Assembly: GCA_035315965.1 (NCBI GenBank)
Contig: DATFXJ010000062.1
Coordinates: 5,007 to 69,006, forward strand
Direction: 5' to 3'
From: Pseudolabrys sp.
Lineage (GTDB): Bacteria; Pseudomonadota; Alphaproteobacteria; Rhizobiales; Xanthobacteraceae
Length of the DNA stretch: 64,000 bases
Shown: piece by piece, positions 5,460-21,917 of the stretch
Layout: every line of letters begins with the position of its first letter
Numbering within the stretch: position 1 is the stretch's first letter
Translations under genes and position numbers: made by a program
The notes under the pieces: generated by a model
What the model was told of the DNA's origin: nothing
The model's input: the letters and a program-made list of their open reading frames with translations, nothing else
The model's database searches: none

Positions 5460-5996
5460 ATGACAGATACCCAAACGCGAGTAACCACCTGGCATGAGAT
5501 CGTGCTCGCAACCCTGAAAGCGAACGACGTCAAACTCGTCGTTTACGTTCCCGACCGTGTGTTCACGCCGCTGATCAAAGCCATTCACGCCGACACATTT
5601 TTCACCACTTTTGCCGCGACCCGTGAAGAAGAGGCACTCGGCATCATCGCCGGCGCATGGATGGGCGGACTGCGCGGCGCGGCGCTGATGCAAACCAGTG
5701 GCTTCGGTACGATCCCGAATGCGCTCGCTTCTCTGGTCGTGCCCTGCCAGATCCCGGCACTCATCTTCGTATCGGAACGCGGCACACTTGGTGAGTTCAA
5801 TCTCGGCCAGGCACTCGTATGCAAGACCATGCGGCCGGTGCTCAACTCGCTTGCGGTGGAAAACATTACGATAACGCGCCTAGACGAGCTTGCGTTTACC
5901 GTCGACCGGTCGATCAAACAGGCTGTGGCGACGCAGGCGCCGGTGACCTTCATCCTCTCGCCGCTGCTGACCGGCGGCAAAGTATTCGAGGGATGA
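5460..5996 (+). CDS. ThDP-dependent decarboxylase alpha subunit (sulfopyruvate/phosphonopyruvate decarboxylase ComD-like)
   Basis: YVPD, TREEEALGIIAGA (cofactor-activating Glu) and MQTSG motifs of the PYR domain. Confidence 0.8.
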   Translation: MTDTQTRVTTWHEIVLATLKANDVKLVVYVPDRVFTPLIKAIHADTFFTTFAATREEEALGIIAGAWMGGLRGAALMQTSGFGTIPNALASLVVPCQIPALIFVSERGTLGEFNLGQALVCKTMRPVLNSLAVENITITRLDELAFTVDRSIKQAVATQAPVTFILSPLLTGGKVFEG

Positions 5997-6003
5997 GGTC
6001 ATC

Positions 6004-6630
6004 ATGACTGCGAAACCGGCCAGAGCGATAGGCGCACACAATGCCAAGGTGATGAACCGTTTCGAGTTGACCAAGCGGCTGGTTATGCAACTCAAACGCG
6101 ACGAAGCGGTCATCGGTGGTATTGGTAACGCCAATTTCGACCTGTGGGCGAGCGGTCAGCGCCCACAGAATTTTTATATGCTCGGCAGTATGGGCCTTGC
6201 TATTCCAATTGCGCTTGGGGTCGCCATCGCGCAGCCGCGCCGGCACGTGATTGCGCTCGAAGGCGAAGGCTCGCTACTGATGCAGCTCGGCTGTCTCGCC
6301 ACTGTCGCCGAACGCGCCCAGAAAAATCTGACTATCGTTGTGTGGGATAACGGCATCTATCAGATCACGGGCGGACAGCCGACGGCGAGCGCAACGGTCG
6401 CCGACCTTGTCGCCATCGCGCGCGGGGCCGGCATCGCAAACAGCGCCTGGGCTGCCGACGAAGCAAATTTCGATCAACTAACGGCATCCGCGCTCAAGGG
6501 CGAGGGGCCCAGTCTCATCGCCGCGCGCATCGACAACAAGCCGGCGGTGGCAACAACCGATCGCGATCCGGTGCAAATTCGGGAGCGCTTCATGCGCGGA
6601 CTGGGAGTAAAAGCCGGTCCCAACAGCTGA
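6004..6630 (+). CDS. ThDP-dependent decarboxylase beta subunit (ComE-like)
   Basis: FYMLGSMG and GEGSLLM...WDNGIY ThDP/Mg-binding region; 7 nt downstream of the alpha subunit. Confidence 0.8.
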   Translation: MTAKPARAIGAHNAKVMNRFELTKRLVMQLKRDEAVIGGIGNANFDLWASGQRPQNFYMLGSMGLAIPIALGVAIAQPRRHVIALEGEGSLLMQLGCLATVAERAQKNLTIVVWDNGIYQITGGQPTASATVADLVAIARGAGIANSAWAADEANFDQLTASALKGEGPSLIAARIDNKPAVATTDRDPVQIRERFMRGLGVKAGPNS

Positions 6631-6996: not shown

Positions 6997-7497
6997 CTAC
7001 GCCAACGTCACCGTGTCGAAATTGGCCGGCATGATGATTTCCAGCAATTCGCAATCGTCGGAATAGCCGACCACGGCGTGCTTGATGCGCGGCGGCTGGA
7101 TCCAGCACGAGCCGGCATGGAACGTATGCGTGCCTTCGCCTTCGAACTCGCTCTTGATCCACCCCTTGAGCACATAGACCATCTGGAAATCGACGTCGTG
7201 ATAATGCCGCTTGGAGACTTCTTCCGGGCGGAACGGAGGAATAAAACGGATGACGTGCGCATGCACCATGCCATCGGTTGCCGTCGCGATACCGAGGTCG
7301 CGGTACTTGGCGTAAGAGCGCAGGCCCTGGTCGAAATCTTCCTCGCGATGATGGCTGAAGGTGAAACGCTGCGGCTTTCGCGCCTTCACGTGTGACGCCC
7401 CCGATGCGCGATGTGCACGTTTCGCGGATTTGACGGCGGTCTTTGTCTTCTTTGTTTTCGCCCTGCTTGCCTTTTCCTTGCGTTTTGCTTTCGCCAT
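6997..7497 (-). CDS. Cupin domain protein with Lys/Arg-rich N-terminal tail
   Basis: Cupin motifs HYHDVDFQMVYVLKG and GSCWIQPPRIKH. Confidence 0.85.
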   Translation of the reverse strand: MAKAKRKEKASRAKTKKTKTAVKSAKRAHRASGASHVKARKPQRFTFSHHREEDFDQGLRSYAKYRDLGIATATDGMVHAHVIRFIPPFRPEEVSKRHYHDVDFQMVYVLKGWIKSEFEGEGTHTFHAGSCWIQPPRIKHAVVGYSDDCELLEIIMPANFDTVTLA

Positions 7498-7517
7498 GAC
7501 AGGCCTCCTTGTGAACC

Positions 7518-7609
7518 GTCATGGCCGGGGCTTGTCCCGGCCGTCCCGCTCAAGGTGGCAACGCGGTTGCGCCCCTAAGTGAGATGCCCGCGATAAGCGC
7601 GGGCATGAC
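7518..7609. repeat. REP-like palindromic element, family A (CTTGTCCCGG core)
   Basis: GTCATG...CATGAC termini with internal GCCGGGGCTTGTCCCGGC and GCCCGCGATAAGCGCGGGC hairpins; homologous copies at 27309 and 50845. Confidence 0.8.
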
Positions 7610-7618
7610 AAGTGAAAG

Positions 7619-8314
7619 TCACTCCGCCGCCTCGGCTGCTCCGCCGTGCGCCTTCGACCAGCCCGCCGGATCGGCGATAAATTTCTCCACCTCTGCCAGC
7701 ATCGTCGGCTCGAATTTCCCGCTCGCTTTCGCAACCGCCAAAACGTGTTTCCAGGTGGTGAGCGGATGCAATCTGACGCCAAGGTCATCAAGGATTTTCT
7801 TACCTTGCGGGTAGATGTCGTAAAAGAAAATCACGAAGCAGTCATCGCACTTGCCGCCTGCTTCGCGCAGCGCGTTGATGAAGTTGACCTTGCTCTTGCC
7901 GTCGGTAGCGAGATCCTCGACCAGCAGCACGCGTTGGCCCGGAATTAATTGCCCCTCGATCTGAGCGCCGCGGCCGAAACCTTTCGGCTTTTTACGCACA
8001 TATTGCATCGGTAGGTGCATGCGGTCGGCCACCCAGGCCGCAAATGGGATGCCGGCGGTTTCGCCGCCCGCCACCGCGTCGATCTTATTGCGGCCGATTT
8101 CGCGTTCGATCGTGTGAACCGCAAAATTCATCAACGTCGAGCGGACGTCGGGAAACGACATCAGCCAGCGCGAGTCGTTGTAGACCGGGCTCGCCCAACC
8201 GCTCGTAAAGATGAACGGCTTGTCGCTCATAAAGCGCACAGCGCCGGTGTCGAGGTACATCCGCGCGGTTAACTCGGCGATGGTTTGCTTGTCGAGAAAC
8301 TGGTTTGACACCAT
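7619..8314 (-). CDS. pyrE: Orotate phosphoribosyltransferase
   Basis: FTSGWASPVYND, VRKKPKGFG and PRPP-binding VLLVEDLATDG motifs. Start set at ATG 8314. Confidence 0.88.
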   Translation of the reverse strand: MVSNQFLDKQTIAELTARMYLDTGAVRFMSDKPFIFTSGWASPVYNDSRWLMSFPDVRSTLMNFAVHTIEREIGRNKIDAVAGGETAGIPFAAWVADRMHLPMQYVRKKPKGFGRGAQIEGQLIPGQRVLLVEDLATDGKSKVNFINALREAGGKCDDCFVIFFYDIYPQGKKILDDLGVRLHPLTTWKHVLAVAKASGKFEPTMLAEVEKFIADPAGWSKAHGGAAEAAE

Positions 8315-8366
8315 GTTGTTTTGCGATCCGCAGACGCTACATGGCTCAGTCAAAGCACAAAACGCC

Positions 8367-9563
8367 TCACGCCGCCATGCCGCAGTGACGCGGCAATTCA
8401 CAGGCAAGATCCAGGAGCGCCTCATCTCCGCCCGCCCAGCCAATGAAGGACAGGCCGATTGGGCATCCGTCGATCGTCCCTGCCGGGATGCTCATTTGCG
8501 GCAAGCCGGAGACGCCGGAGGTGCATGTCAATCGCATGACCCGAACGCGGAATTCTTCCAGTTCCGCGCCTGAAATTTCGACCTTGGGTGCAATGCACGG
8601 TGCAGTCGGCAACGCAAGAATCGTTCCGGGAGCCGTGATCTGCCGGATGTGCTCGCGTGCCTTGATCTGTACGCTGCGAGCGGCGTCGGCCTGCGTCCTC
8701 GTGACAGTGGCGGCAAATTCCATGCGCTCCCGCACGCCCGGACCGATGTTCGGCTTGTGCCTGGTGATAAATCCGCCGAATGTCTGCCACGTTTCGTAAG
8801 CCTGGACGATTCTGAACGCCTCGCGCCAGGTATCGAGACTCTCGGGCGCGATCTTGCCATGCACCATCTCCGGCAAGTCATCGCTCATGAATTCGAGGGC
8901 CGTGCGTAGCAGGTCCGCCACTGGTTCCTCCGCCTGCGCAAAAGCGTCTTCCAGCACGACAACGCGCTCGATCTTCACGGTCACACCACGGTCGTCCAGC
9001 AGCACAGCACCGATCTTACGGAATACGCCCGGCGTTGCCGCGAACCAGCCCGGTACGTCGAAGGTTGGGGCCATGTCGACAACGCCGCTGTGCTCGATGC
9101 GGTCATGCGTGGGCCGAAGGCCATAAATGCCGTTAAAGGACGCGGGGACTCGCACCGAGCCGCCGGTATCGCTGCCGAGCGCGAAATCGCACAAACCAGC
9201 GCCGCAGGCAGCAGCTGCGCCCGCGGACGATCCTCCGGGCAAGCGACCTGGTGCGCGTGCATTCACGGGCGTGCCGTAGTGCGCATTGGCGCCGCTCACG
9301 CTGTAGAAGAATTCATCGCACACAGTTTTGCCGGTGATGGTCGCGCCGGCGTTGAGTATTTTCTGCACCGGCGGGCAATGGCGCGTGGCAGGCGCGTGGC
9401 TTGCGAGCCATTCCGGGTTGCCGCAGCCAGTGCGCTCGCCCGCGATGTCGTACATGTCCTTGACCACCGCACTCAAGCCCGCGAGCGGCCCGCTGGCAGC
9501 GCCTTTGATCGGAGCTTTGATGTCATGCGGAACGAAGCAAGTGCGATAGGCATGCGGCAGCAT
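8367..9563 (-). CDS. Amidase signature family amidase
   Basis: VKDMYD (catalytic Lys), PGGSSAG and GSDTGGSVRVPAS (Ser-cisSer-Lys triad). Start set at ATG 9563. Confidence 0.9.
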   Translation of the reverse strand: MLPHAYRTCFVPHDIKAPIKGAASGPLAGLSAVVKDMYDIAGERTGCGNPEWLASHAPATRHCPPVQKILNAGATITGKTVCDEFFYSVSGANAHYGTPVNARAPGRLPGGSSAGAAAACGAGLCDFALGSDTGGSVRVPASFNGIYGLRPTHDRIEHSGVVDMAPTFDVPGWFAATPGVFRKIGAVLLDDRGVTVKIERVVVLEDAFAQAEEPVADLLRTALEFMSDDLPEMVHGKIAPESLDTWREAFRIVQAYETWQTFGGFITRHKPNIGPGVRERMEFAATVTRTQADAARSVQIKAREHIRQITAPGTILALPTAPCIAPKVEISGAELEEFRVRVMRLTCTSGVSGLPQMSIPAGTIDGCPIGLSFIGWAGGDEALLDLACELPRHCGMAA

Positions 9564-9579
9564 TTTGCGGTGTGTCTCT

Positions 9580-10467
9580 TTATTTGTGCGCGTTATTCTG
9601 CGCGGCCAGATACCAGTCGAGGATTTTTGCGCCATCCCAGGTTACGACGCCGTCATGCGAAAGGATCTCCGCAAATGTCCGCTCCACATGGCCGATGCGA
9701 TGAGGCACGCCAGAGAGATAGGGGTGGCAGGCCATCGCCATAATTTTCGGCCGCTCGGCCGATTCCTTATAGAGCGTCATAAAGTGGTCTAGCGCACGGG
9801 CGTGCCATTCGTTTGAGGGAAGGTGTTGCAGCGCCATCATGACGATGTCGTGGATTTCGAAATTGTAAGGCAGCGCCACAACCGGTTTGTGAGCGGTCTC
9901 CAGCGTCACCGGCTCATCGTCGAGCACCCAGTCACCGATATATTCGACACCCGCTTCCGAAAGATAGTCGAGCGTATCGAAGGTCTGGGTCAGCCCCGGA
10001 CCAAACCAGCCGCGCGGACGATTGCCGGAGAATTTCTCGATTACGTCCATGGACTTCATGATGACGGCGCGCTGGTTGTCGAGTTTGTGCATCGGGATTT
10101 GGTCGTAACCGTGCGCGTTGAGCTCCCAGCCGCTGTCGAGACACGCTTGGACGACCAGCGGATATGTTTCGCAGACTTTGGCATTAAGCGTTACCGTCGG
10201 AGTGATCCCGAGCTTGAGCATCATCTTGCGCAGCCGCCAGAATCCGACGCGCATGCCGTATTCATGCCAACTCCAGTTCGGATGGTCCGGTAGCATCGGC
10301 TGCCCTTGCGGCGGCGAAATGACCATGCGCGCCATTGGCCGCGCCATGTCCCACTCCTCAAGCGCCAGCACCGGCCAGATCACCAGCCGCACACCTTTCG
10401 GCAATTTGAGCGGCGGCCGGCCGTCGATCGGCGAATAGGCTAGTCGTTCACGCGGATGCATGGGCAT
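9580..10467 (-). CDS. CE4/polysaccharide deacetylase fold, PuuE-like hydrolase (paralog 1)
   Basis: RLAYSPIDGRPPLKLP, LEEWD, WHEYGMRVGFWR, AHGYDQ, DDEP and HPY motifs. Confidence 0.85.
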   Translation of the reverse strand: MPMHPRERLAYSPIDGRPPLKLPKGVRLVIWPVLALEEWDMARPMARMVISPPQGQPMLPDHPNWSWHEYGMRVGFWRLRKMMLKLGITPTVTLNAKVCETYPLVVQACLDSGWELNAHGYDQIPMHKLDNQRAVIMKSMDVIEKFSGNRPRGWFGPGLTQTFDTLDYLSEAGVEYIGDWVLDDEPVTLETAHKPVVALPYNFEIHDIVMMALQHLPSNEWHARALDHFMTLYKESAERPKIMAMACHPYLSGVPHRIGHVERTFAEILSHDGVVTWDGAKILDWYLAAQNNAHK

Positions 10468-10472
10468 AAGGG

Positions 10473-11378
10473 CTACGCCGATTTCGGCCCGACCTTTGTA
10501 TACCAGTCGGCGATCCGCGATCCGGTCCAGAACAGCACGTCGCGCTTTTTGCGGATCTTCTCGTAGATCTTACGGAAATATTTCGTTCGGTGCGGCGCGC
10601 CCATGATGTAAGGGTGCACTGAAATCGCCATCACCCGCGCCGAGCCCTTAGCATCCTTGTAGATCTGCTCGAACTGGTCCATCGCCCGCTCATAGAACTC
10701 CGACGCCTTGTGATGCTGAATCAGCATCATGGCGACGTCGTTGCATTCTTGCGTATAGGGAATGTTGAGGATCGACTTGGTGCGCGTCTTCATCCATACG
10801 GGCTGGTCGTCGAGCACCCAGTCGGCCACATAGTCGTAGCCTTCTTCCGCCAGGATATCGGGCGTTTCCCAGGTTTCAGTCAGGCCGGGTCCGAGCCAGC
10901 CGCGCGGACGCTTTCCCGTCGCTTTTTCCAGCACCTCAGCGCTCCTGCGGATATCCACACGCTCGTTTTCGACCTTTTGCATGTTTCGCTGGGTGTATCC
11001 ATGGCCGATGAATTCCCAGTTGCGCTCGATGCAAGCCTTCACGATGTCCGGATAGGTCTGCACCGCGACACCGTTGACGTTCATCACGCCAGGAATCTTG
11101 AAGTCGTCGTAAACCTGTAGCAGCCGCCAGAAGCCAACGCGGTTGCCGTATTCGTGCCAGCACCAATTCGGAATGTCAGGCATCGGCGAGCCGCCGGCGG
11201 GCGGGGTGAGCACCGTCCGCGGCATAGTCTGCGTCGGGTCCCATTCCTCGACATTGGTGATGGTCCACACCACCATGCGCGCGCCGTTCGGCAACTTCAG
11301 CGGCTTGCGTGTGGTGATCGCGGAATAATCGAGACGGTCGTTTGGCAGCATGCCGACAGCGGGCTTGGGGAAATTCAT
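10473..11378 (-). CDS. CE4/polysaccharide deacetylase fold, PuuE-like hydrolase (paralog 2)
   Basis: RLDYSAITTRKPLKLP, NVEEWD, WHEYGNRVGFWR, GHGYTQ, DDQP and HPY motifs. Confidence 0.85.
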   Translation of the reverse strand: MNFPKPAVGMLPNDRLDYSAITTRKPLKLPNGARMVVWTITNVEEWDPTQTMPRTVLTPPAGGSPMPDIPNWCWHEYGNRVGFWRLLQVYDDFKIPGVMNVNGVAVQTYPDIVKACIERNWEFIGHGYTQRNMQKVENERVDIRRSAEVLEKATGKRPRGWLGPGLTETWETPDILAEEGYDYVADWVLDDQPVWMKTRTKSILNIPYTQECNDVAMMLIQHHKASEFYERAMDQFEQIYKDAKGSARVMAISVHPYIMGAPHRTKYFRKIYEKIRKKRDVLFWTGSRIADWYTKVGPKSA

Positions 11379-11444
11379 GCGCGGGCGTTCCTCGGGATAT
11401 GATTGGCTGGCAGTTTTACAGTTAGCCCGGGTATTGTACAGGCC

Positions 11445-12287
11445 ATGAAGCTTGTTCGTTATCGCTCTGCGGTTGGTGAAAAGCCCGGTCTGATTCTAGA
11501 TGGCGAAGTGTTCGACCTGTCGGGTAGCTTTGCCGCCCTCAACCCGCGCGCACCGACGTTTGCCGACATCGAGGCGATCGCGGCTGTACCTGCGAAAGCA
11601 CTGTCGAAAGCGGAGAAGGGCGTCGTGCTGGGCCCGCCTTTGCGCGGCATCGGCAAAATCATTGGCGTTGGCCTGAACTATCGCGATCATGCGGAGGAAA
11701 CCGGCCTACCTTTGCCGAAGGAGCCGACGCTATTTCTAAAAGCCACCAGCGCGCTTTGCGGGCCGACCGACGATCTCGTCGTGCCGCACGGGGCAAAGAG
11801 CGTCGACTGGGAGATCGAGCTCGGCGTGGTGATCGGCAAGCCCGGCGTCTATATCGCGGAGCGGGACGCGCTCGACCATGTGCTTGGTTATTGCGTCGGC
11901 ATCGATTTTTCCGAGCGTGACTTCCAATTCAATCGTGGCGGGCAGGGCTTCAAGGGCAAGAGCGCCGATACTTTCGCGCCGCTCGGTCCGTTCCTGGCGA
12001 CACGCGACGAGATCGCGGATCCACAGAAACTGGCACTGCGCCTCGCAGTCAACGGCGTCGGCAAGCAGAACGGCAATACGCGCGAGATGATTTTTTCGGT
12101 TGCCGAGCTTGTTTCCTACATCAGCCGCTTCATGAGTCTTCAGCCGGGCGACGTGATCCTCACCGGCACGCCTGCGGGCGTCGGCCTCGGCCACAAGCCG
12201 CCGGTTTATCTTAAGGCCGGCGATGTGGTGACGGCCTCGATCGAAGGCCTCGGCGAGCAGAGCCATAAAGTGGTGACTGGCGGATAG
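11445..12287 (+). CDS. Fumarylacetoacetate hydrolase family protein
   Basis: GVGLNYRDH, DWEIELG, DFSERD, KSADTF and GDVILTGTPAGVG motifs. Start at ATG 11445. Confidence 0.9.
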   Translation: MKLVRYRSAVGEKPGLILDGEVFDLSGSFAALNPRAPTFADIEAIAAVPAKALSKAEKGVVLGPPLRGIGKIIGVGLNYRDHAEETGLPLPKEPTLFLKATSALCGPTDDLVVPHGAKSVDWEIELGVVIGKPGVYIAERDALDHVLGYCVGIDFSERDFQFNRGGQGFKGKSADTFAPLGPFLATRDEIADPQKLALRLAVNGVGKQNGNTREMIFSVAELVSYISRFMSLQPGDVILTGTPAGVGLGHKPPVYLKAGDVVTASIEGLGEQSHKVVTGG

Positions 12288-12322
12288 GTGACAGCAGCGC
12301 GGCCATACGTTGGATGACGGCC

Positions 12323-13324
12323 TCAGCTCCCCTTCTCGTCGTGGATCTCTGGGAAGAAGTAATCTTTCCACGACGCGGGCTTGGCCTTGAGGGTGCCGAC
12401 CACCGCCATGAAGTCCGCATATTTCATGGTGTTTTCGGGGGTCAGAGTCCAGCGCACCTGCGGGCCGGCGACAATCTTGCCGACCATGTCGATCGACAGT
12501 TTCGATTTCGAATCCTCGATCCACAGAGCAGCCGCGGCCGTCTTGTCCTTATTGACGATATCGGTCGCTTCCTTCAGTGCCGCCACCAGCGCCTTGTAAA
12601 GAACCGGATTGCCGTCGCGGAATTTCGCCGGAGCCCAGACGGCGGTGAATGTATGCGAGCCGCTCATCACGTCGAAGGAATTGAGCACGGTGTGAACGGC
12701 GGGATCCTCGAGCTGCTGATACTGAAACGGCGGCACGCTGAATGCGGCACTGATCTGAGCGCCGCCCTTGAGCAACGCGACTGTGGCATCCGGCGGCGTC
12801 ATCGAAACCGTCAGCGGATCGAATCTCGCAAATTGTTTCGTGCCATACTCCTTCGCCGCCGCCATTTGCAGCGTGATCGCCTGCACCGAGGATCGCACAG
12901 CGGGCACGGCGATGCGGTCGCTTTCCTTGAAGTCCTTGATGGTCTTGATGGCGGGATCGCGACTGTTGAGCAAGAATGGCTGCGAGCTCAGCGCAGAAAT
13001 TCCGCGCACCTCCTGCGGAGTGCCTTTGCTGCGCGCCCAAAGCATGAGCAGTCCAGGCACACCGCCCGAACCGACATCAATATTGCCGGAAATCAGCGCT
13101 TCGTTGACCGCGGTTGGCCCGTTGAAGGTGAACCATGAAACTTTCACATCGTCGAGGCCGAGCGCTTTTGAATGCTTCTCAATGAGCTGTTGGTGCTCCA
13201 TCACGTTGAGCTGCAGGTAGCCCATGGAAAATTGCCGCGCGAGACGGATTTCCTCAGCCGGTGCAGACGCCTCCGCAAACAGCGCGAACGCTCCAATGAG
13301 GCTCGCGAATGCCTTGATACGCAT
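12323..13324 (-). CDS. ABC substrate-binding protein, SsuA/NMT1-like
   Basis: Sec-type signal peptide, FNGPTAVNEALISGNIDV and IAVPAVRSS motifs typical of class II binding proteins. Confidence 0.82.
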   Translation of the reverse strand: MRIKAFASLIGAFALFAEASAPAEEIRLARQFSMGYLQLNVMEHQQLIEKHSKALGLDDVKVSWFTFNGPTAVNEALISGNIDVGSGGVPGLLMLWARSKGTPQEVRGISALSSQPFLLNSRDPAIKTIKDFKESDRIAVPAVRSSVQAITLQMAAAKEYGTKQFARFDPLTVSMTPPDATVALLKGGAQISAAFSVPPFQYQQLEDPAVHTVLNSFDVMSGSHTFTAVWAPAKFRDGNPVLYKALVAALKEATDIVNKDKTAAAALWIEDSKSKLSIDMVGKIVAGPQVRWTLTPENTMKYADFMAVVGTLKAKPASWKDYFFPEIHDEKGS

Positions 13325-13375
13325 TTGAGTCTTCCCAAGACCGCCGATCTTGCTCTTATGGGCGGCGGCGCAACG

Positions 13376-14272
13376 CTATGCGGCAGCTTCGATCTTGGCA
13401 ATGCTGCGGTACCAGTCGAAGATCTGCTCGCCGTTCCAGTGCAGCACGCCTTCATGCTTGTTCACGTGATCGTAGATCTGCTCGAGATATTTGATCCGGT
13501 GCGGCTGCCCGCTAATGTAGGGATGGATCGCCAGCGCGCAGAATTTGGCGCGGGTCGTGCTCTCGCCATAAAGCCGGTCGAACTGGTCGATGGTGCGATT
13601 TAGCAGATAGTCGCTCTCGTGATGTTGGATTAGCATCATCGGAATGTCGTTTAGCTCGATGCTGTAGGGCAGGGTGACGAGCGGCCCCTTAGCGGTGCGG
13701 ATCACCGTCGGCTCATCGTCATAGACCCAGTCACCGATATATTTCACGCCCGCTGCCGCGAGCAATTCCGGCGTGTCCAGCGTTTGTGTCAGGCCCGGCC
13801 CGAGCCAGCCAACCGGCTTCTTGCCGGTGAATTTGGTCAGAATGTCCATGGTCCGCTTGATCATGACGGCCTGGTCGGTTTCCTTGTGAATCGGACCCTG
13901 CTCATAGGCGTGGGCCATAAACTCCCAGCCGGCATCGCGCGCCGCCTTTGCCACGCGCGGATAGTCCCCGCAGATACGCGCATTGGCGGCAAGCGTCGGC
14001 TTGATGCCGAGGCGTTTGAACAAATCGAAGAAACGCCAGCAGCCGACCCGCATGCCGTATTCGTGGAAGGCCCAATGCACGACGTCGGGCATGAGCTGAA
14101 CTCCCGTTGGGGCCGGGAGCAATTGCCGCGCCATCGGCTTGCCGATGTCCCAGACCTCGAAATTGACAGTGGTCCAGAATACAATGCGGGCATTGCCCGG
14201 CAATTTGAGCGGCGGGCGGTCGACGATCGCCGAGTAGTCGGCACGTTCGCGCGGAATCATCGGGCTGGACAT
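13376..14272 (-). CDS. CE4/polysaccharide deacetylase fold, PuuE-like hydrolase (paralog 3)
   Basis: RADYSAIVDRPPLKLP, NFEVWD, FHEYGMRVGCWR, AHAYEQ, DDEP and HPY motifs. Confidence 0.85.
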   Translation of the reverse strand: MSSPMIPRERADYSAIVDRPPLKLPGNARIVFWTTVNFEVWDIGKPMARQLLPAPTGVQLMPDVVHWAFHEYGMRVGCWRFFDLFKRLGIKPTLAANARICGDYPRVAKAARDAGWEFMAHAYEQGPIHKETDQAVMIKRTMDILTKFTGKKPVGWLGPGLTQTLDTPELLAAAGVKYIGDWVYDDEPTVIRTAKGPLVTLPYSIELNDIPMMLIQHHESDYLLNRTIDQFDRLYGESTTRAKFCALAIHPYISGQPHRIKYLEQIYDHVNKHEGVLHWNGEQIFDWYRSIAKIEAAA

Positions 14273-14292
14273 AAGAGACTTTCCTTTTCGAC

Positions 14293-14320
14293 GTCATTCC
14301 GGGGGCGGCGAACCCGTAAT
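14293..14320. repeat. Truncated REP-like element, family B
   Basis: GTCATTCCGGGGGCGGCGAACCCG matches the left arm of the copies at 17736 and 34955. Confidence 0.5.
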
Positions 14321-14330
14321 GTCAAGCATC

Positions 14331-15050
14331 TCACGCCGTCGCGGCCACGCGCAACCCGACCAGCCGTTCGAGCGTGGCGCTATCTCTCAACAACTGCGCA
14401 GAAGTTGCGCGGTGCGCCACAGCGCCACGCTCCAACACGATAGCTTCAGCCGTCAGTTCGAGCGCGAAGTCCGTGTGCTGCTCGACAAGGATAATGGCGA
14501 TGCGGCGGTCGGAGAGCATCGTCTTCATCGCGGCAATGAGCTCGTCGACGATTACAGGCGCGAGACCCTCGAATGGCTCATCGAATAGCATCAGTGTCGG
14601 ATTGGTCATCAGTGCGCGCGCGATTGCGAGCATTTGCTGCTCGCCGCCGGAGAGCTGGTTACCCATGTTGCGGCGGCGCTCGGCGAGGCGCGGAAAAAGT
14701 CTGAAAACCGCGTCAAGATCCCAGGAGCCTGGCTGCGCCGCGACCGTGAGATTCTCCTCGACCGACAGCGAGGGAAAGATTTCCCGCTCCTGGGCGACCC
14801 AGCCGATACCTTTGGTCGCGCGGCGGTTCGGAGGCATGCGCGAAATATCCTGACCGTGCCAAGTCACCTGACCACTGCGCAATTGTGTGTAGCCCATGAT
14901 GGTCATCAGCAATGTCGACTTACCGACGCCATTGCGGCCGAGCACTGCCAGGCTGCTGTTCTCTGGCAAGTCGAGCGAAATACCGTGCAGCACGACGGCG
15001 TCGCCATAACCGGCAGTAACGTTGTTGACCTTGAGCAAGGAGTCAGCCAT
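14331..15050 (-). CDS. Branched-chain-type ABC transporter ATPase (LivF-like)
   Basis: Walker A GRNGVGKS, LSGGEQQ signature and Walker B LMLFDEP. Start at ATG 15050. Confidence 0.9.
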   Translation of the reverse strand: MADSLLKVNNVTAGYGDAVVLHGISLDLPENSSLAVLGRNGVGKSTLLMTIMGYTQLRSGQVTWHGQDISRMPPNRRATKGIGWVAQEREIFPSLSVEENLTVAAQPGSWDLDAVFRLFPRLAERRRNMGNQLSGGEQQMLAIARALMTNPTLMLFDEPFEGLAPVIVDELIAAMKTMLSDRRIAIILVEQHTDFALELTAEAIVLERGAVAHRATSAQLLRDSATLERLVGLRVAATA

Positions 15051-15837
15051 GTTTGCGCTTGCCCAGATAGACTTCCCGCACGCCCGGGTCGGCAGCGATC
15101 TCGGCCGGCGAACCTTCCGTAAAGATCGCACCGCCGACCAGCACGATGATGTGGCTTGCGAAGCGAAACACAACGTGCATGTCGTGCTCAATAAACAATA
15201 AGGTGAGATCGTCCGACAGGCTCGCCACAGCCTCGAAGACTTCGCCGCTTTCTTCCTGCGGGACTCCGGCCGCCGGTTCGTCGAGCAGTAGAACTTTCGG
15301 CCCGGTTGCGAGCGCTAGCGCGATTTCCAGCAACCGTTGACGGCCGTAAGGCAATTCGCGCGTAACCTGGTAGCAGGACTCGCCTAGCCGCAATTTGCGT
15401 AGTATCTCGTAAGCCTCGTCGATGGCTTCGCCATGCGAGCCAAGGCCGCGCCAGAACTGCCCGGCGAGCCCGCGCCGTTCGGCCACTGCCAAGGTCACCG
15501 CCTCCAGCGCGTTGAGACCGGCGAACAGTGTGTTGATCTGGAATGTGCGCGCGAGCCCACGCCGCACCCGCTCCTGCGGACCAAGTTCGGTGATGTCCTT
15601 GCCGCCGAGCATAATTTGTCCGGCGTTGGGCGCCAGCATGCCAGTCATCAGGTTGATGAGCGTCGTCTTGCCCGCGCCGTTCGGCCCGATCAGCGCGTAG
15701 CGCGCGCCGACCGGTAGATTGATCTCGATGTTGCGTGCCACCGGCAGCGAACCGAACGCTTTTGACAGGCCGCGGGTAGCTAAAGCGATTGTGCGACTAG
15801 CGATCGCGTTCTCAGCTGGAGGCGTGGGTGTGCTCAT
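15043..15837 (-). CDS. Branched-chain-type ABC transporter ATPase (LivG-like)
   Basis: GPNGAGKT, LPYGRQR, LLDEPAAG and IEHDM motifs. Start at ATG 15837. Confidence 0.9.
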   Translation of the reverse strand: MSTPTPPAENAIASRTIALATRGLSKAFGSLPVARNIEINLPVGARYALIGPNGAGKTTLINLMTGMLAPNAGQIMLGGKDITELGPQERVRRGLARTFQINTLFAGLNALEAVTLAVAERRGLAGQFWRGLGSHGEAIDEAYEILRKLRLGESCYQVTRELPYGRQRLLEIALALATGPKVLLLDEPAAGVPQEESGEVFEAVASLSDDLTLLFIEHDMHVVFRFASHIIVLVGGAIFTEGSPAEIAADPGVREVYLGKRKHG

Positions 15838-16823
15838 TTGCGTCTCCACCGCGCATAGAATTCCGATAGGCCGCCGAGAATGCCGTTGGGGAGCACCATG
15901 ACAACCGTCACCAGGAGCATGCCCATCCAGAAATACCAATATTGCGGGGCGATGCCGGAGAACTGATCACGCGCGATCATGAAAATCGTCGCGCCGACCA
16001 ATCCACCATAAAGCCGCCCGGCACCACCCAGCACCAGCATCACAAGCACGTCAGCTGATCGCTGGAAACTGATCGATTCAAGCGAGACGTTTTCAGTCGT
16101 CTGCGCCAGCAGCGCTCCGGCAAGTCCCGCAATCGTTGCAGCGATGGTGTAAGCCTTGCGGATATGCGCGCGGCTGTCGGCGCCGATCGCCGGCATTCGT
16201 ATCCAGTTCTCCCGGATGCCACGCAGCGCCAGACCAAACGGGGAGTTGATCAGCCGGCGCACGCCCAGGAAAATGACGAACAATGCAGCCAGCGAATAGA
16301 TGTAGGCGACGTAGCCATAGAGATCGAACTTGAACAAACCGAGCACCGGCCACATCGAAATGCCTTGCAATCCGTCGCTGCCGCCGGTGAGCCAATGTGC
16401 GCGGTTTGCCGCCTCGAACGCGAGCAGACCAAGGCCGAGCGTGATCATGATGAGCGTAAAATGTCGGAAGCGCGAAATGACAAAACTGACAGCAAAACCG
16501 ACAAGTCCGGCCGCAACCGACGCCAGCACGAGACCGGTCAGTGGTTCGCCCCAGCCAAATTTGGAGATCAGTCCAGCGGAGTAAGCGCCGATGCCGAAGA
16601 AGGCCGCGTGGCCGAGCGAAACAATACCGGCATAGCCGAGGATGAGGTCAAGAGAGAGCGCGAACAGCGCGGTGATAGCAATCTGGCTTGTAAGCGACAA
16701 ATAGTTCGGGAACAGGAAGAACGGCAGCAGCGTCGAAAGCCAGAACGCAATCTCGAGCGGATGCCAGCGGCTCTGTGCCTGTAGATAGGCCTGCGGTGCC
16801 AACGCTGCGACTGCGGGCGGCAT
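15834..16823 (-). CDS. Branched-chain-type ABC permease (LivM-like)
   Basis: GYAGIVSLGHAAFFGIGAY, SPFGLALRGIREN and VMLVLGG motifs. Confidence 0.9.
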   Translation of the reverse strand: MPPAVAALAPQAYLQAQSRWHPLEIAFWLSTLLPFFLFPNYLSLTSQIAITALFALSLDLILGYAGIVSLGHAAFFGIGAYSAGLISKFGWGEPLTGLVLASVAAGLVGFAVSFVISRFRHFTLIMITLGLGLLAFEAANRAHWLTGGSDGLQGISMWPVLGLFKFDLYGYVAYIYSLAALFVIFLGVRRLINSPFGLALRGIRENWIRMPAIGADSRAHIRKAYTIAATIAGLAGALLAQTTENVSLESISFQRSADVLVMLVLGGAGRLYGGLVGATIFMIARDQFSGIAPQYWYFWMGMLLVTVVMVLPNGILGGLSEFYARWRRK

Positions 16824-16826
16824 GGT

Positions 16827-17690
16827 CTAGCGCCTCCCGAACAAGCCGGCTGGGCGCCACATGAGCACCACGACCATGACCAGATAAATCAGAAAGGCGC
16901 CAAGCTCAGGCGCGTAATATTTGCCGGCGACGTCGCTGACACCGATCAGAATTGCGGCGGCAAACGAGCCGGCAATGGAGCCGAGGCCGCCGACCGAAAC
17001 GATGATCAGCACATAGACCAAGTACGTGAAGGCGAAATTTGGATCGAGGCCGACGACCTCGATCGCGAGGGCGCCGCCGAGGCCCGCAAGACCGGATCCG
17101 AGAGCGAAGGTCGAGGCGAAGGTGCGATCGACATCGATGCCGAGCCCGCGCGCCATGCGCTGATTGTCAACCGCCGCGCGAACCTGCGCGCCGAAGCGCG
17201 TGTATTCCAGGCCTGCGACCAGCAGCATCGTGACTACCAATGCGATGCCGATCAGGAACAACCGGTACTTTCCAAGCCCGAGGCCGAGGAAATCGACCAC
17301 GCCGCGCAGTCCACTAGGCGTTTCGACCGGCTGCTGGGTCGTGCCGAAGATATAGGCGGCGATGGCGACGGAAATGAATGCAAGCCCGATGGTGAGCAGC
17401 ACCTGATCGAGGTCGCTGGCACGGTAGAGCCGTCTGTAAAGCACGCGTTCAAGAACGACACTCGCGATTGCCGCGGCCGCGAACGCCGGCGGCAGCGTCG
17501 CGAGGAACGGCCAATGAAGTTCGTTCACCAGCGTAATGGTAACGTAGCCGCCGAGCATTGCGAAAGCGCAATGGGCTAGGTTGACGAAGTTCATCAACCC
17601 GAGCGTCACCGACAACCCAACCGACAGCACGAACAGCAACATGCCGTAGGCGATGCCATCAAACAGGACACCAAAGACTGGGGAAAGCAT
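16827..17690 (-). CDS. Branched-chain-type ABC permease (LivH-like)
   Basis: GLSVTLGLMNFVNLAH, TRFGAQVRA and VSVGGLGS motifs. Confidence 0.9.
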   Translation of the reverse strand: MLSPVFGVLFDGIAYGMLLFVLSVGLSVTLGLMNFVNLAHCAFAMLGGYVTITLVNELHWPFLATLPPAFAAAAIASVVLERVLYRRLYRASDLDQVLLTIGLAFISVAIAAYIFGTTQQPVETPSGLRGVVDFLGLGLGKYRLFLIGIALVVTMLLVAGLEYTRFGAQVRAAVDNQRMARGLGIDVDRTFASTFALGSGLAGLGGALAIEVVGLDPNFAFTYLVYVLIIVSVGGLGSIAGSFAAAILIGVSDVAGKYYAPELGAFLIYLVMVVVLMWRPAGLFGRR

Positions 17691-17735
17691 GATGGCGCCG
17701 GTTGCCTTTGCTTAGCCCTTGCGCGGGGTTTGCCT

Positions 17736-17833
17736 CATCATTCCGGGGCGCGAATACCATGAACCCGGAATCCATACGCCCAGTTGGTGATTATGGATTC
17801 CTCGCTCATGGCTGTGCAGCGCCCCGGGATGAC
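17736..17833. repeat. REP-like palindromic element, family B (GAACCCGGAATCC...GGATTCC core)
   Basis: CATCATTCCGGGGCGC...GCGCCCCGGGATGAC terminal inverted repeat between livK and livH; homolog at 34955. Confidence 0.8.
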
Positions 17834-17958
17834 GAATAGATTGGTCAAACGCAACCATCATACGGATTTCTTGTCTATGGCGGCCATCCCGAATGCAGCG
17901 AATGGGACGACCTTGAGATCGCCCCATCCGGAAGTTCGTAAGAGCTCAGGGCGGCAAG

Positions 17959-19128
17959 CTACTTGTGCGTCGGGTCTTTCACATTCGGCACAGTGTCGAA
18001 CTCGACATTGACGATATCGTTGCCAACTTTCTCCACCCTGCGGACATATACGTTCTGCACGATGTCGCGGGTCTCCGGATCGATGGAGATTGGCCCGCGC
18101 GGGCTTTCCCATTTCATGCCTTTGGCCGCGGCGATCAAGGCATCGCCATCGGTCTTGCCGCCGGTCTTCTTGAGCGCCTCGTAGATGAGATGCATGCCGT
18201 CATAGCCGCCGACCGCGAAGAAATCCGGATTGCGCTTAAATTCCGCGTTGAAGGCTTTCACGAAATCGGCATTCATCTTTGACTTGTGATTGTAATCGTA
18301 GTGCCAGGCACTGAGGCGGCCCAAAGCAAGATCGCCCAGACTTTTGATCGCAGTTTCGTCAACCGGCTCGCCGGTGCTCAGGATCTTGATCTTGTTGGGG
18401 TCGACTTGACGCTCGGCAAAGGCCTTGCCAATCGCGGCCGGCTGCGCGCCGCCCGGCACAAATAGGAAAATCGATTCCGGATTGAGATCCTTCGCACGCT
18501 GTACGAAGGCCGAGAAGTCCGGGTTGGCGATCGGCATGCGCACCGAACCCACAATCTCGCCGCCCGCTGCCTTAAATGCTTTCTGGAACGCGGTTTCGGC
18601 ATCGATGCCGGGACCGAAGTCGGTCACCATGGTATAGGCTTTCTTGATCTTGCCCTTGGTGGCCGCCCAGGTACCGAGCGTTTCGCCGATCTGCGGCAGC
18701 GTCAGTGACACGCGCACGATGTAGGGCGACTTCTCGGTAATGACCGACGTCGCGGCGTTCATGTCGACCATGAATTTCTTGGCTTCGGCTGAAATGCCCG
18801 AGGCGCCGAGCGCTTCCGGCGTGAGCGTAAAGCCGGCCAGCATGTCGGCCTTGTCACGCACGATCAATTCCTGCGCCAGGCGCTTGGCGACATCCGGGTT
18901 CGGGCCGCCGCTGTCTTTGCGGATGATCTCGATCTTCTTGCCGGCGACGGTGTCGCCGTGTTGCTTCATATAGAGCTTGATGCCGTTGTCGATCTGCGCG
19001 GTGGTGTCGGCGAACTGTCCGGAATAGGCAGAAATAACGCCGATCTTGATGGTTTCTTGGGCGCTAGCGCCTACCGGCAGCATGGCCGCCGCGAGGATGG
19101 CGGCGCCGGCGAATAACACGCGTTTCAT
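17959..19128 (-). CDS. Branched-chain-type ABC substrate-binding protein (LivK-like, PBP1)
   Basis: Signal peptide, IKIGVISAYSG, GKKIEIIRKDS and WESPRG motifs. Resembles the subfamily that binds aromatic acids (recalled, not tested). Confidence 0.88.
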   Translation of the reverse strand: MKRVLFAGAAILAAAMLPVGASAQETIKIGVISAYSGQFADTTAQIDNGIKLYMKQHGDTVAGKKIEIIRKDSGGPNPDVAKRLAQELIVRDKADMLAGFTLTPEALGASGISAEAKKFMVDMNAATSVITEKSPYIVRVSLTLPQIGETLGTWAATKGKIKKAYTMVTDFGPGIDAETAFQKAFKAAGGEIVGSVRMPIANPDFSAFVQRAKDLNPESIFLFVPGGAQPAAIGKAFAERQVDPNKIKILSTGEPVDETAIKSLGDLALGRLSAWHYDYNHKSKMNADFVKAFNAEFKRNPDFFAVGGYDGMHLIYEALKKTGGKTDGDALIAAAKGMKWESPRGPISIDPETRDIVQNVYVRRVEKVGNDIVNVEFDTVPNVKDPTHK

Positions 19129-19269
19129 GATGGTCCTCCCCTGAAAATCGTTTGCTTCGTATTGTTGTTGTTAGAATGCCTGAGGTTTCATGCAAAGAAA
19201 AGCGCTGCGGCCGGAGGTCGCGGCGTATTGGTTGGAAGCCAGTGCAGGCCAGTATCGCCCATTCTTACT

Positions 19270-19360
19270 GTCGTCCCCGCGAAGCCGAGGACCCAAAGTT
19301 GCAGCCTGACAAAAGATACAGGCTATCGTCCCGGGACTCCGCTCGGTTGCCCGGGACGAC
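19270..19360. repeat. REP-like palindromic element, family C (GTCGTCCCCGCGAA...GGGACGAC)
   Basis: Terminal inverted repeat GTCGTCCC/GGGACGAC in the spacer upstream of livK. Confidence 0.7.
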
Positions 19361-19389
19361 CTTGATTTTCTAGGGCGTCGCGGCTTCGC

Positions 19390-20262
19390 TCACGCCAGCG
19401 ACAGCGTTGCCCGCTCGTATTGGGCGCTGCCCATTTTCCCTTCCGGGAAAATGCGGTGGGCAGCAATCCACTCGAAGGATTCCTCGTAGATTTCCTTGGT
19501 ATAGGGCTCGAACACCAGCCTTTCTCCAGGACCCCAGCGCCGCGTGTCCATTTTGGCGTGGAAGCGGTCGGGGAATTCCTTCTTGTAATAATGAGTATAG
19601 AGTTCGGGCCGCAGGTCGATGTCACGCTGGGCCTTGCGGAGTGCGCGGAAGAACTTGCGCAGGTCTTCAGGATCGGGATCGCCATGGATCATGGTGCCGA
19701 TCATGAAGGTGGCGTCGATCACCTTGCGGAACCCAAGCTGTTCGGCGAAGTAATAGGGCCCCCCAAAGAGGTGCACGGCCGGCGCCTTGCCCTCGAACAG
19801 CCGCTCCATGCGCGCAAACAGCATGCCGTCGGAATAGACGAGGTTCATCTCCTCCGGCTTCAGGTACTGTTCGAGTGCCTGCACCGTCGAATAATGACTA
19901 CCGGATTGATAGCCGACCGAAACCGGCACGCCAGCCAGATCGGTCGGATCTTTTATCTTCGAATCGCCGGCGACAAAGATACCAGCGGGCGCCACCGAAT
20001 AGACGTCGGTGTACATCTTGCCGTGCCCGTTGGACGCAGCGACGTTGACGGTCCAGTGGCAGGCGCAGCTGACGTTCGATTTGCGACCTTCCTCGAATGA
20101 CTGGTAGGCGCCAACTTTGTCGCCTTTGTCGTGAATCTTGCCGCCGGTCGAGCGCATTAGCTCGCGGAATTCGTATTCAAGGCCTTCCTTGCGGAAGTAG
20201 TCCTTCTCCTCGGCCACCCATTCCTGCAGTCGGAAATGCGGTTCGATCAGGAATTTCGCCAT
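19390..20262 (-). CDS. Class II binding-protein-fold protein (NMT1/SsuA-like) lacking a signal peptide
   Basis: WVAEEKDYFRKEGLEYE and DLAGVPVSVGYQSGSH patterns. An in-frame TAA 18 nt upstream of the ATG excludes an N-terminal extension; AAGGGAG RBS. Confidence 0.75.
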   Translation of the reverse strand: MAKFLIEPHFRLQEWVAEEKDYFRKEGLEYEFRELMRSTGGKIHDKGDKVGAYQSFEEGRKSNVSCACHWTVNVAASNGHGKMYTDVYSVAPAGIFVAGDSKIKDPTDLAGVPVSVGYQSGSHYSTVQALEQYLKPEEMNLVYSDGMLFARMERLFEGKAPAVHLFGGPYYFAEQLGFRKVIDATFMIGTMIHGDPDPEDLRKFFRALRKAQRDIDLRPELYTHYYKKEFPDRFHAKMDTRRWGPGERLVFEPYTKEIYEESFEWIAAHRIFPEGKMGSAQYERATLSLA

Positions 20263-20284
20263 GGTTTTGTTCTCCCTTTAGTTT

Positions 20285-21058
20285 CTAGCAGCATGATTGT
20301 CCTTGGTGCCCGCGTTCGGCCACGCGCCGGGCGCGGATCATCTTGACGTGGTCGTCCATCAGCGCGCGCGCAGCGGCTGCATCACGCATCTCAATCAGGT
20401 CGGTAAGCTGGGTGTGAATGTCCAGGATGTGCCGCGCGAGCTTAGGCGTTGCGGTAACGTTGCGGCGGGGCCAGGAGACGTGCTCAAGCGAGATGAGCTG
20501 CACGACCAGCACTCGGTTGTGCGAAGCTTCGGCGACGGCAAGGTGAAAGTCGCGCGATAGGCGCGTGAACAGGTCGAGGTCGCCGATCACGCCTTCAGCG
20601 TCGCGCAACAGTTGGCGCAATCTGGCGATATCGGTGGCGGTCGCATTCTCGGCCGCGAGTTCTGCGCCAAGGGTCTCGATCGCGCGCTGCGCGTCCATGA
20701 TCTCGGCGGTGGACACGCCGGTAAGGTCGAGCTGGACGGCTAGCGCCTCGGCGAAGAGGCGCGGATTGCCCTGCGCGATACGCGCCCCGCCACCCTTGCC
20801 CATGCGGATTTCGACGATGCCAAGTGCTTCCAGTGTGCGCAATGCATCGCGCGCGACGATCCGGCTGGCGCTGAAGCGTGCCGCGAGGTCCTTCTCGGTG
20901 CCGAGAAAATCACCGGGTTTAAGTTTCTTGGCGAAGAGGGCGTCGCGCACCCAGGTGACGATCTGCGCCGACAGCGAGGCGGAACGGCCAGCAAGCATAA
21001 TTCGGGCGGTGAGGTCACCGTTCATCGTCACCGGCTGCCGCAGTGCCATTCGTGACAT
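20285..21058 (-). CDS. GntR/FadR family transcriptional regulator (FCD domain)
   Basis: wHTH LKPGDFLGTEKDLAARFSASRIVARDAL and FCD motifs DFHLAVAEASHN and DIHTQLTDLI. Confidence 0.92.
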   Translation of the reverse strand: MSRMALRQPVTMNGDLTARIMLAGRSASLSAQIVTWVRDALFAKKLKPGDFLGTEKDLAARFSASRIVARDALRTLEALGIVEIRMGKGGGARIAQGNPRLFAEALAVQLDLTGVSTAEIMDAQRAIETLGAELAAENATATDIARLRQLLRDAEGVIGDLDLFTRLSRDFHLAVAEASHNRVLVVQLISLEHVSWPRRNVTATPKLARHILDIHTQLTDLIEMRDAAAARALMDDHVKMIRARRVAERGHQGQSCC

Positions 21059-21107
21059 ATCGACGCCCTTGTTGAGAGAATGAGTATGGAGGGATGGCTT
21101 AAAATAG

Positions 21108-21129
21108 TAAAGATATCATCTTATCTTTA
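21108..21129. promoter_or_regulatory. Palindromic operator candidate TAAAGATA-N6-TATCTTTA
   Basis: Perfect 8-bp inverted repeat 50-71 nt upstream of the GntR start, adjacent to a minus-strand TACTAT -10-like hexamer. Confidence 0.6.
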
Positions 21130-21657: not shown

Positions 21658-21917
21658 TTTCGGCCCCTTAGGTCCCACAGTAGCATAGTTTTTGCGTTAG
21701 TGGATGTGCCGCTCGTTTCGAAGCCAGTCACCCATAGCTGATTGGCCAACAAAGTCCGCAGAATGCTCGACAACCCTGAAGCGTCAAGGGGGCCATAATC
21801 GGCCGGCCCCGCTTACGAAATAAGCACGCAAAAACCGCTTTGAGTTGGAGCTGCAGACATTTATTGCTCATTCAGCCGCAATCAATCACTTTAATAGTTA
21901 ATAATTGGCCAGCACTC

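Follow-up and report, generated by a model that had tools for sequence, protein, structure and literature searches.

Relatives of PuuE with a Glu-His-Gln active site in a patchwork locus of Pseudolabrys sp.

The contig DATFXJ010000062.1 of Pseudolabrys sp. (Xanthobacteraceae) carries three paralogous hydrolase genes, here called H1, H2 and H3, the products of which are predicted from their sequences to be cytoplasmic members of a large uncharacterised sister family of the allantoinase PuuE. The genes lie in a stretch of 14 kb (positions 6,997 to 21,129) within the 64,000 nucleotides of DNA that were analysed and that are referred to as the window. This stretch is a mosaic, composed of a block which is conserved across the genus, of flank genes, and of a variable insert of about 6 kb that is made of two modules. 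Metal-free cyclic amidohydrolases of the CE4 fold with a partner amidase are a known kind of system; what is new here is the Glu-His-Gln variant of the active site and its setting in a patchwork locus. The window belongs to contig 62 of a 2.99-Mb metagenome-assembled genome (MAG) with a completeness of 90%, and its genes were called from an open reading frame (ORF) listing together with Pfam and NCBIfam scans of the window proteins (Table 1). An earlier interpretation made from the letters alone, the sequence-only reading, had described the entire stretch as one GntR-linked cluster for the stepwise or heteromeric opening of an N-heterocycle or cyclic imide other than allantoin.

The nearest solved protein to the hydrolases by sequence is PuuE of Pseudomonas fluorescens (3CL6, 4e-28), with which H1, H2 and H3 share 23-26% identity, and among themselves the three are 44-49% identical. 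An AlphaFold model of H2 (predicted local distance difference test score, pLDDT, 94.6) shows the CE4/NodB-type barrel with the topology of PuuE, 3CL6 being its best fold match (template modelling score 0.83, 24% identity). In PuuE the Asp-His-His metal triad of the deacetylases gives way to Glu-His-Trp (PMC11424739, citing Ramazzina et al. 2008). H1, H2 and H3 resemble PuuE in their fold, in their cytoplasmic location, in their length of about 300 aa and in keeping the triad Glu, the first His and the C-terminal catalytic His, but they differ from it in having Gln for the triad Trp and in most residues of the pocket. The motifs HGYDQ, HGYTQ and HAYEQ, together with the HPY motif, are present in the three proteins as had been read, and 3CL6 has HGYRW at the aligned place, with the true PuuEs of relatives reading HGLKW. 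The Glu noted in the sequence-only reading is likewise conserved, but the Glu of the triad sits in an N-terminal N-x-E motif (E37 in H1, E44 in H2, and E39 in H3); the WHEYG motif of the hydrolases holds a second conserved Glu which is distinct from that of the triad.

A tree of 103 relatives from species-representative genomes and six true PuuEs placed H1, H2 and H3 in three separate and well-supported orthologue clades, with a fourth clade being betaproteobacterial and all of them distant from PuuE; the H1, H2 and H3 clades are old. The Glu, the His, the Gln and the C-terminal His are kept in 102 of the 103 sequences, Gln replacing the triad Trp in 102 of the 103 relatives. When the 17 pocket residues listed for BpIH and PuuE (PMC11424739) were mapped onto the alignment of the 103 sequences most of them were found to differ, both Arg included, and six positions are changed in every clade (W131Q, Y165F/L, G167P, R168G, Y190V, and R265Y). 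Other positions vary by clade, namely N36 (Ala or Ser in H1), L217 (Phe/Tyr, Gln, or Val/Ile) and N220 (His in H1). Judged by their residues, H1, H2 and H3 each look catalytically competent with pockets that differ from each other, and the proposal that each of them serves a distinct step or substrate is consistent with these three pockets. Since the full catalytic set is kept in all three, none of them is an obvious non-catalytic partner.

It should be noted that the Gln does not mark these three proteins alone. At E<=1e-3 the wider family counts 7,394 representatives, a number that falls to 713 (possibly with some true PuuEs among them) at E<=1e-30; relatives are encoded in at least 589 stretches of species-representative genomes. 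Because this wider family has either Asn or Gln at the position, the Gln is a subfamily marker within a continuum and not a singular change. Both alignment and gene context bear out the existence of a distinct Glu-His-Gln subfamily beside amidase and FAH genes, and no characterised member of the Glu-His-Gln/Asn family was found in the literature. Two CE4 domains are fused in some distant relatives of 628-686 aa (P0251, P0255, P0256, and P0262), which come from Acidimicrobiia (sponge symbionts), Rhodoferax and others; the second domain has VRPW instead of HPY and therefore no C-terminal catalytic His. One such double-domain gene (locus L120) lies beside an amidase-signature amidase, a PrpD-family gene, a MetNIQ-like ATP-binding cassette (ABC) system and a GntR/FCD regulator, and because this distant locus holds the same set, the theme of hydrolase, amidase, transporter and regulator recurs independently.

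That the paralogs are ordinary PuuE allantoinases of purine breakdown is very improbable, even though the JGI annotation names many of their relatives "allantoinase" and PuuE is the best match both by sequence and by fold. Against the TIGR03212 cut-off of 424.6 bits H1, H2 and H3 score 102.9, 136.8 and 103.9 bits, i.e., a quarter to a third of what PuuE membership demands, and Trp131, Arg168, Arg265, Tyr165 and Tyr190 of PuuE are all replaced. True PuuE also coexists with the paralogs: these are carried by 22 of 24 same-genus genomes (in one such genome, G009, no such hydrolase is found anywhere), and five of the 22, each a different species, additionally encode a PuuE above the cut-off. In the Pseudolabrys genome itself, at its 90% completeness, we found neither an OHCU decarboxylase nor a gene of the allantoicase/ureidoglycolate lyase families. 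The identity given by the NCBI annotation, that of polysaccharide or peptidoglycan deacetylases, is hardly credible at all. The PF01522 matches of H1 (32.3 bits), H2 (46.3 bits) and H3 (34.7 bits) do exceed the gathering score of 23.1, but no hydrophobic N-terminus that could act as an export signal was seen in the three translations, the positions aligned with the Asp-His-His metal triad of the CE4 deacetylases hold Glu-His-Gln, and at the loci examined the neighbours are catabolic and transport genes, never those of cell wall or exopolysaccharide. Hundreds of soil and water bacteria carry these hydrolases under the names "polysaccharide deacetylase" or "allantoinase", both of which are wrong for the clade.

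The layout of the stretch suggests a single unit at first sight. All of its genes are on the minus strand except for the FAH gene, as had been claimed from the ORFs, and the short gaps are real, with 5 nt between H2 and H1 and 16 nt between H1 and the amidase if the latter starts at the Met codon at 9563, which is where its NF006169 match begins. Between the probable start of the FAH gene (11445) and that of H2 there are 66 nt. The run from H2 through H1 to the amidase therefore needs a promoter of its own, and there are at least two minus-strand transcription units in the stretch. A promoter and terminator scan of the stretch gave counts not above those of shuffled sequence.

Comparison within the genus does not support one co-conserved GntR-linked unit of 14 kb. 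In Pseudolabrys sp. FHR47, the genome of which is complete, gntR, the NMT1-fold gene, livKHMGF, pyrE and the cupin gene stand in a row with no hydrolase or amidase there, and locus L099 has only gntR and the NMT1-fold gene, with neither transporter nor hydrolase. The linkage of gntR to the hydrolases consequently fell as well, the pair of gntR and NMT1-fold gene occurring hydrolase-free both with and without the liv genes. It is the site between livF and pyrE/cupin that varies, and the block of about 6 kb from H3 to the amidase fills it in the window. At least eight different contents were found at this site within the genus: nothing; H3-H2; H3-SsuA-H2; H3-SsuA-...-FAH-H2; H3-SsuA-FAH-H2-amidase without H1; H1-amidase only; the full set of the window; and H3-aldehyde dehydrogenase-H2-H1-DUF1326-PpoB2-amidase. 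The full gene order of the window recurs in its closest relatives (L007 and L017). The last of the eight arrangements is that of locus L108 (G018:C9), where an opposite-strand aldehyde dehydrogenase gene replaces the SsuA-like and FAH genes between H3 and H2, and where H1 is separated from the amidase by genes for DUF1326 and PpoB2 (copper chaperone family). Two further loci, L106 and L110, have about 4 kb of short ORFs with no Pfam hits between the SsuA-like gene and the FAH gene; these may be decayed genes or an unrecognised element within the variable site. A search for mobile-element traces around the insert of the window detected only repeats derived from the paralogs and none marking the insert, and GC content is uniform, with no shift of composition at the insert.

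Nor is the hydrolase block a single unit, as the insert is made of two modules that occur apart elsewhere. Adjacency was counted across 80 loci in species-representative genomes. An amidase gene follows immediately downstream of H1 in 23 of 39 species loci, the two genes overlapping or being 16 nt apart, and this pair is spread over Xanthobacteraceae, other Hyphomicrobiales and Burkholderiales; at L025 it forms a two-gene unit with an overlap of 25 nt among housekeeping genes. The gene logic of an imidase with a half-amidase, i.e., a ring hydrolase gene directly followed by an amidase gene across taxa, is found in this H1 and amidase pair. At several H1 loci the adjacent gene is for a 2-hydroxyacid dehydrogenase or for a TctC binding protein, and TctC genes are near many H1 loci. 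In the second module, which in the window joins H3 and H2 with the SsuA-like and FAH genes, H3 lies upstream of H2 in 15 of the 16 species loci with H2, and H2 downstream of H3 in 14 of the 24 with H3; a liv-type ABC system is present within 6 kb of H3 in 11 of 19 loci. In Bradyrhizobium sp. McL0615 genes for an aldo-keto reductase, an Amidohydro_2 protein, a FrsA-like hydrolase, an isochorismatase-like amidase, H3, a 235-aa FAH protein, H2, livHMKGF and another Amidohydro_2 protein follow each other. The FAH protein between H3 and H2 in arrangements of this type is a different paralog, and because it is only 35-40% identical to that of the window the recurring partner is an FAH-type activity and not one orthologue. 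Solo H2-like genes of Xanthobacteraceae MAGs (L092-L096) adjoin a Rieske oxygenase alpha/beta pair.

The uptake systems give an indication of the substrate. LivK of the window (423 bits and 56% identity to PDB 4EY3/4EYG/4EYK in an alignment of 362 residues, with 4F06 and 4EVS also near) is predicted by this similarity to belong to a group that binds benzoate-type aromatic acids, and it is this identity that links it to the benzoate-derivative binding proteins of Rhodopseudomonas palustris (4EY3/4EYG/4EYK, 4F06, 4EVS, and 4EVQ). The binding protein of the Bradyrhizobium module is not its orthologue (24-27% identity to LivK of the window) and is nearest to 4ZPJ, 4EY3 and 4EVQ. For RPA0668, binding of lignin-derived aromatics is confirmed (PMC12223119). 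The LivK group, the Bradyrhizobium binding protein and the TctC genes near H1 loci together point to substrates that are carboxylated and probably planar. The livHMGF genes, for the permeases and ATPases of an importer of the branched-chain amino acid (HAAT, LivFGHMK-like) type, are conserved together with livK within the genus. The SsuA-like protein occurs only in close relatives, as do the NMT1-fold protein, the regulator and the cupin.

The reading that we favour, to which we give slightly better than an even chance, combines the mosaic locus with hydrolases that act as metal-free openers of cyclic amides, imides or ureides, followed by the amidase. Each hydrolase would need no metal and would cleave the C-N bond of a small substrate of its own, a cyclic amide, imide or ureide that differs from one hydrolase to the next. 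Since the uptake systems found as partners belong to the carboxylate or aromatic-acid type, these substrates would probably bear a carboxylate. The amidase would then hydrolyse the exposed terminal amide or carbamoyl group to an acid and ammonia, as in a pathway of imidase and half-amidase, and the FAH enzyme may cleave or decarboxylate a beta-dicarbonyl acid product. The chemistry, the order of the steps and a functional tie to the importer are all proposed by analogy. From the ring-opening pathway for an N-heterocycle or cyclic imide that was originally suggested, the exclusion of allantoin and the amidase beside H1 have stood, but not its being one unit with pyrE, the cupin gene and gntR.

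Several observations weigh against the reading just given. The ring opening is inferred from the analogy to PuuE at an identity of only 23-26%; 16 of the 39 H1 loci have no adjacent amidase; at L113 an amidase gene lies next to H2 with no H1; and H2-like proteins (75-76% identity to H2) also occur alone, in an arrangement of MFS, CE4 and EamA genes, so that H2-type enzymes need not depend on H3. Given the variable site in which the insert is found, co-orientation with the importer could come from operon hitch-hiking and need not reflect a shared function. The R. palustris proteins of the 4EY3 group were reportedly crystallised with 4-hydroxybenzoate, vanillate, protocatechuate and benzoate, in work by Michalska and colleagues from 2012.

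Of the alternatives, a single GntR-controlled pathway running from gntR to the cupin gene and including pyrE, in which the hydrolases attack one N-heterocycle stepwise or as hetero-oligomers, appears unlikely. It would explain the co-orientation of all genes but one with short gaps, the recurrence of the full order in the closest relatives, and the position of H3 upstream of H2 in all but one of the H2 loci; fused double-domain relatives exist, and liv-type transporters are found near H3 in other families too. It is contradicted by FHR47, which has the regulator, the transporter, pyrE and the cupin gene without hydrolases, by the varying content of the site among same-genus species, by the separation of H1 plus amidase from H3 plus H2 in most genomes, by the FAH gene splitting the stretch into at least two transcription units, by the solo H2-like proteins, and by a catalytic set which is complete in all three hydrolases and leaves no obvious non-catalytic partner. 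The pyrE gene, moreover, is a sole housekeeping copy. It is the only orotate phosphoribosyltransferase gene of the genome (satisfying the equivalog cut-off of NF001729), for which reason pyrE and the cupin gene are regarded as flanking genes. Directly adjoining livF in the hydrolase-free FHR47, the two are not the pathway members that the sequence-only reading had made of them. The idea of an orotate-related system, built on pyrE, pyrimidine-type binding folds and ureide hydrolases, was also rejected, as pyrE is present in a single copy, L013 and L107 do not have it at this place, and it lies next to livF where hydrolases are absent.

It is equally improbable in our judgement that the hydrolases cleave open-chain N-acyl amides or imides, for instance by deformylating or deacetylating products of the N-formylmaleamate type, with the amidase being like maleamate amidohydrolase. 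The CE4 fold is ancestrally that of a de-N-acylase, the binding protein is of aromatic-acid type, and the Bradyrhizobium module adjoins an alpha/beta hydrolase, an isochorismatase-like amidase, Amidohydro_2 proteins and FAH, a set of families that presumably resembles the lower nicotinate and picolinate pathways (NicD/NicF, PicC/E/F). On the other side, there is no ring-cleaving dioxygenase in the window cluster or beside the H1 and amidase pairs, the metal site of CE4 deacylases is absent from the hydrolases, and both PuuE and BpIH, the closest relatives that have been characterised, are enzymes acting on rings (PMC11424739).

The favoured reading of metal-free ring openers could also be put more broadly, in a form that we offer as a doubtful, tentative proposal: the Glu-His-Gln/Asn proteins may be widespread undescribed imidases and ureidases, free of metal, with H3 plus H2 (with or without FAH or an isochorismatase-like amidase) and H1 plus amidase standing at the head of unknown bacterial pathways to which carboxylated cyclic imides or ureides supply nitrogen and carbon. 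In this tentative form H2 might also be joined with H3 in a hetero-oligomer. Candidates for the substrates would then be maleimide- or hydantoin-type oxidation products of tetrapyrroles, purines and pyrimidines; the pyrimidine ring of carboxylates of the alloxazine or pteridine type, as in the LumH/I/M steps of lumichrome breakdown, would be another. Cyclic imides, ureides and lactams include natural oxidation products as well as many pollutants and drugs. If the substrate were assigned, a large amount of annotation would be put right, the metal-free CE4 amidohydrolases would gain Glu-His-Gln/Asn as a third variant of their active site, and a missing route for the breakdown of such compounds would probably come to light. 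The locus also carries a caution for gene-cluster reading, since tidy co-oriented gene runs in these genomes can be patchworks; here pyrE is a bystander.

Known systems offer partial models for the proposed reactions. The PuuE-type imidases BpIH and AfIH hydrolyse 3-isobutylglutarimide (PMC11424739), so that the same metal-free fold opens cyclic imides other than allantoin; unlike the hydrolases described here they are members of the true PuuE family, 61-63% identical to PuuE and with the Glu-His-Trp triad, and the hydrolysis of imides is for them a side activity, discovered for use in biocatalysis and without a known physiological role. In the nicotinate pathway of Aspergillus the amidase HxnN acts after HxnM, a cyclic imidase of the CE4 fold (PMC9304392). 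This pair and the cyclic imide hydrolase (CIH) of Pseudomonas putida YZ-26 share with H1 and its neighbour the logic of an imidase followed by an ammonia-releasing amidase. They differ in that HxnM and CIH are closest to HpPgdA (3QBU), unlike H2, which matches 3QBU at 2e-16 and thus more weakly than PuuE at 4e-28, and in that the window encodes neither a nicotinate hydroxylase nor a ring reductase. H1 plus amidase has its nearest functional model in the pathway of Blastobacter sp. A17p-4, a relative in the Bradyrhizobium group, in which an imidase and a half-amidase reportedly degrade succinimide, maleimide and glutarimide (work of Ogawa in 1997 and Soong in 2000). There, too, ring opening would precede half-amide hydrolysis, and subunits reportedly of about 35 and 48 kDa would fit H1 (33 kDa) and the amidase (about 43-45 kDa); the sequences of these Blastobacter enzymes are not known to have been linked to genes, and an identity with H1 and amidase is only a lead. 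Lumichrome breakdown employs, besides the ring hydrolases LumH/I/M, a thiamin enzyme of two subunits, a cupin and an FAH protein (PMC12746152), and this set of protein families resembles that in and around the stretch. LumH was considered as a possible double-domain CE4 protein, but the double-domain proteins that we found are not from Nocardioides.

Table 1. Genes of the 14-kb stretch (window coordinates) with the matches or residues by which they were classified.
Feature	Position	Strand	Basis
GntR-family regulator with FCD ligand domain	20285..21058	-	PF00392 + PF07729
Cytoplasmic NMT1/THI5-fold protein, 290 aa, no signal peptide; possible enzyme	19390..20262	-	weak PF09084
LivK-type periplasmic binding protein, predicted aromatic-acid-binding group	17959..19128	-	56% identity to PDB 4EY3/4EYG/4EYK
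livH	16827-17690	-	HAAT-type ABC importer, permease
livM	15834-16823	-	HAAT-type ABC importer, permease
livG	about 15043-15837	-	HAAT-type ABC importer, ATPase
livF	14331-about 15056	-	HAAT-type ABC importer, ATPase
Hydrolase 3 (H3), PuuE-like CE4 fold	13376..14272	-	Glu39-His121-Gln125 + His250
Orphan SsuA/NMT1_2-like periplasmic binding protein with signal peptide	12323..13324	-	PF13379 and TIGR01728, below cut-off
FAH-family enzyme	11445..12287 (ORF from 11403, probable start 11445)	+	PF01557, 242 bits
Hydrolase 2 (H2)	10473..11378	-	Glu44-His126-Gln130 + His255
Hydrolase 1 (H1)	9580..10467	-	Glu37-His119-Gln123 + His248
Amidase-signature (AS) amidase	8367..about 9563 (ORF extends to 9635)	-	PF01425, 189 bits; NF006169, 454 bits
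pyrE, orotate phosphoribosyltransferase	7619..8311	-	NF001729, 353 bits (cut-off 245)
Small cupin, Lys-rich N-terminal tail	6997..7497	-	PF07883

The partner enzymes were assigned from their family matches and nearest solved structures. The amidase exceeds the NF006169 cut-off of 391 bits, matches PF01425 and has in its translation the full signature GGSS...GSDTGGSVRVPA (family pattern GGSS...GSDTGGS(I/V)R.PA), which places it among the amidase-signature enzymes; its nearest solved structures are 2DC0 and malonamidase E2, the latter being a half-amide hydrolase of Bradyrhizobium. The FAH protein is nearest to 8GSR (3e-75), an L-2,4-diketo-3-deoxyrhamnonate hydrolase, that is, a C-C hydrolase of beta-diketo acids. 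The first 40 or so residues of the cupin ORF abound in Lys, Ala and Arg (MAKAKRKEKASRAKTKKTKT...), and relatives of the cupin match only from residues 29-43 onward, so that either the start is wrong or the N-terminus is a fast-evolving tail.

The NMT1-fold gene always follows the GntR/FCD gene whether the transporter is present or not (L097 and L099 included), and its product is conserved very strongly, the 120 cluster representatives listed being 81-89% identical to it. The motif SCACHW is invariant in this protein. A sequence search found no relative among PDB structures, the homologues carry no functional names, and a structure model built on a shallow alignment reached a pLDDT of 41; 4,5-dihydroxyphthalate decarboxylase is presumably of the same fold. 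A candidate homologue at L063:7086-7964 was rejected, as it shows no homology.

Outside the stretch, Pfam gives no match, even at E 0.01, for a 551-aa ORF that lies at 21840-23495 on the plus strand, divergently from gntR. On the other side, two adjacent plus-strand genes (5460-6630) encode proteins of 178 and 208 aa that correspond to the N- and C-terminal halves of a thiamin-diphosphate enzyme. Two-subunit decarboxylases of this type are rare, being known from coenzyme M, rhizocticin, and LumK/LumL (PMC12746152). The 208-aa half matches NF004813, a "hypothetical protein" family, at 352 bits, and both halves match sulfopyruvate decarboxylase subunits below the cut-off. The pair lies beside a TctC gene and an enolase-superfamily gene, and it recurs in L006 and L118.

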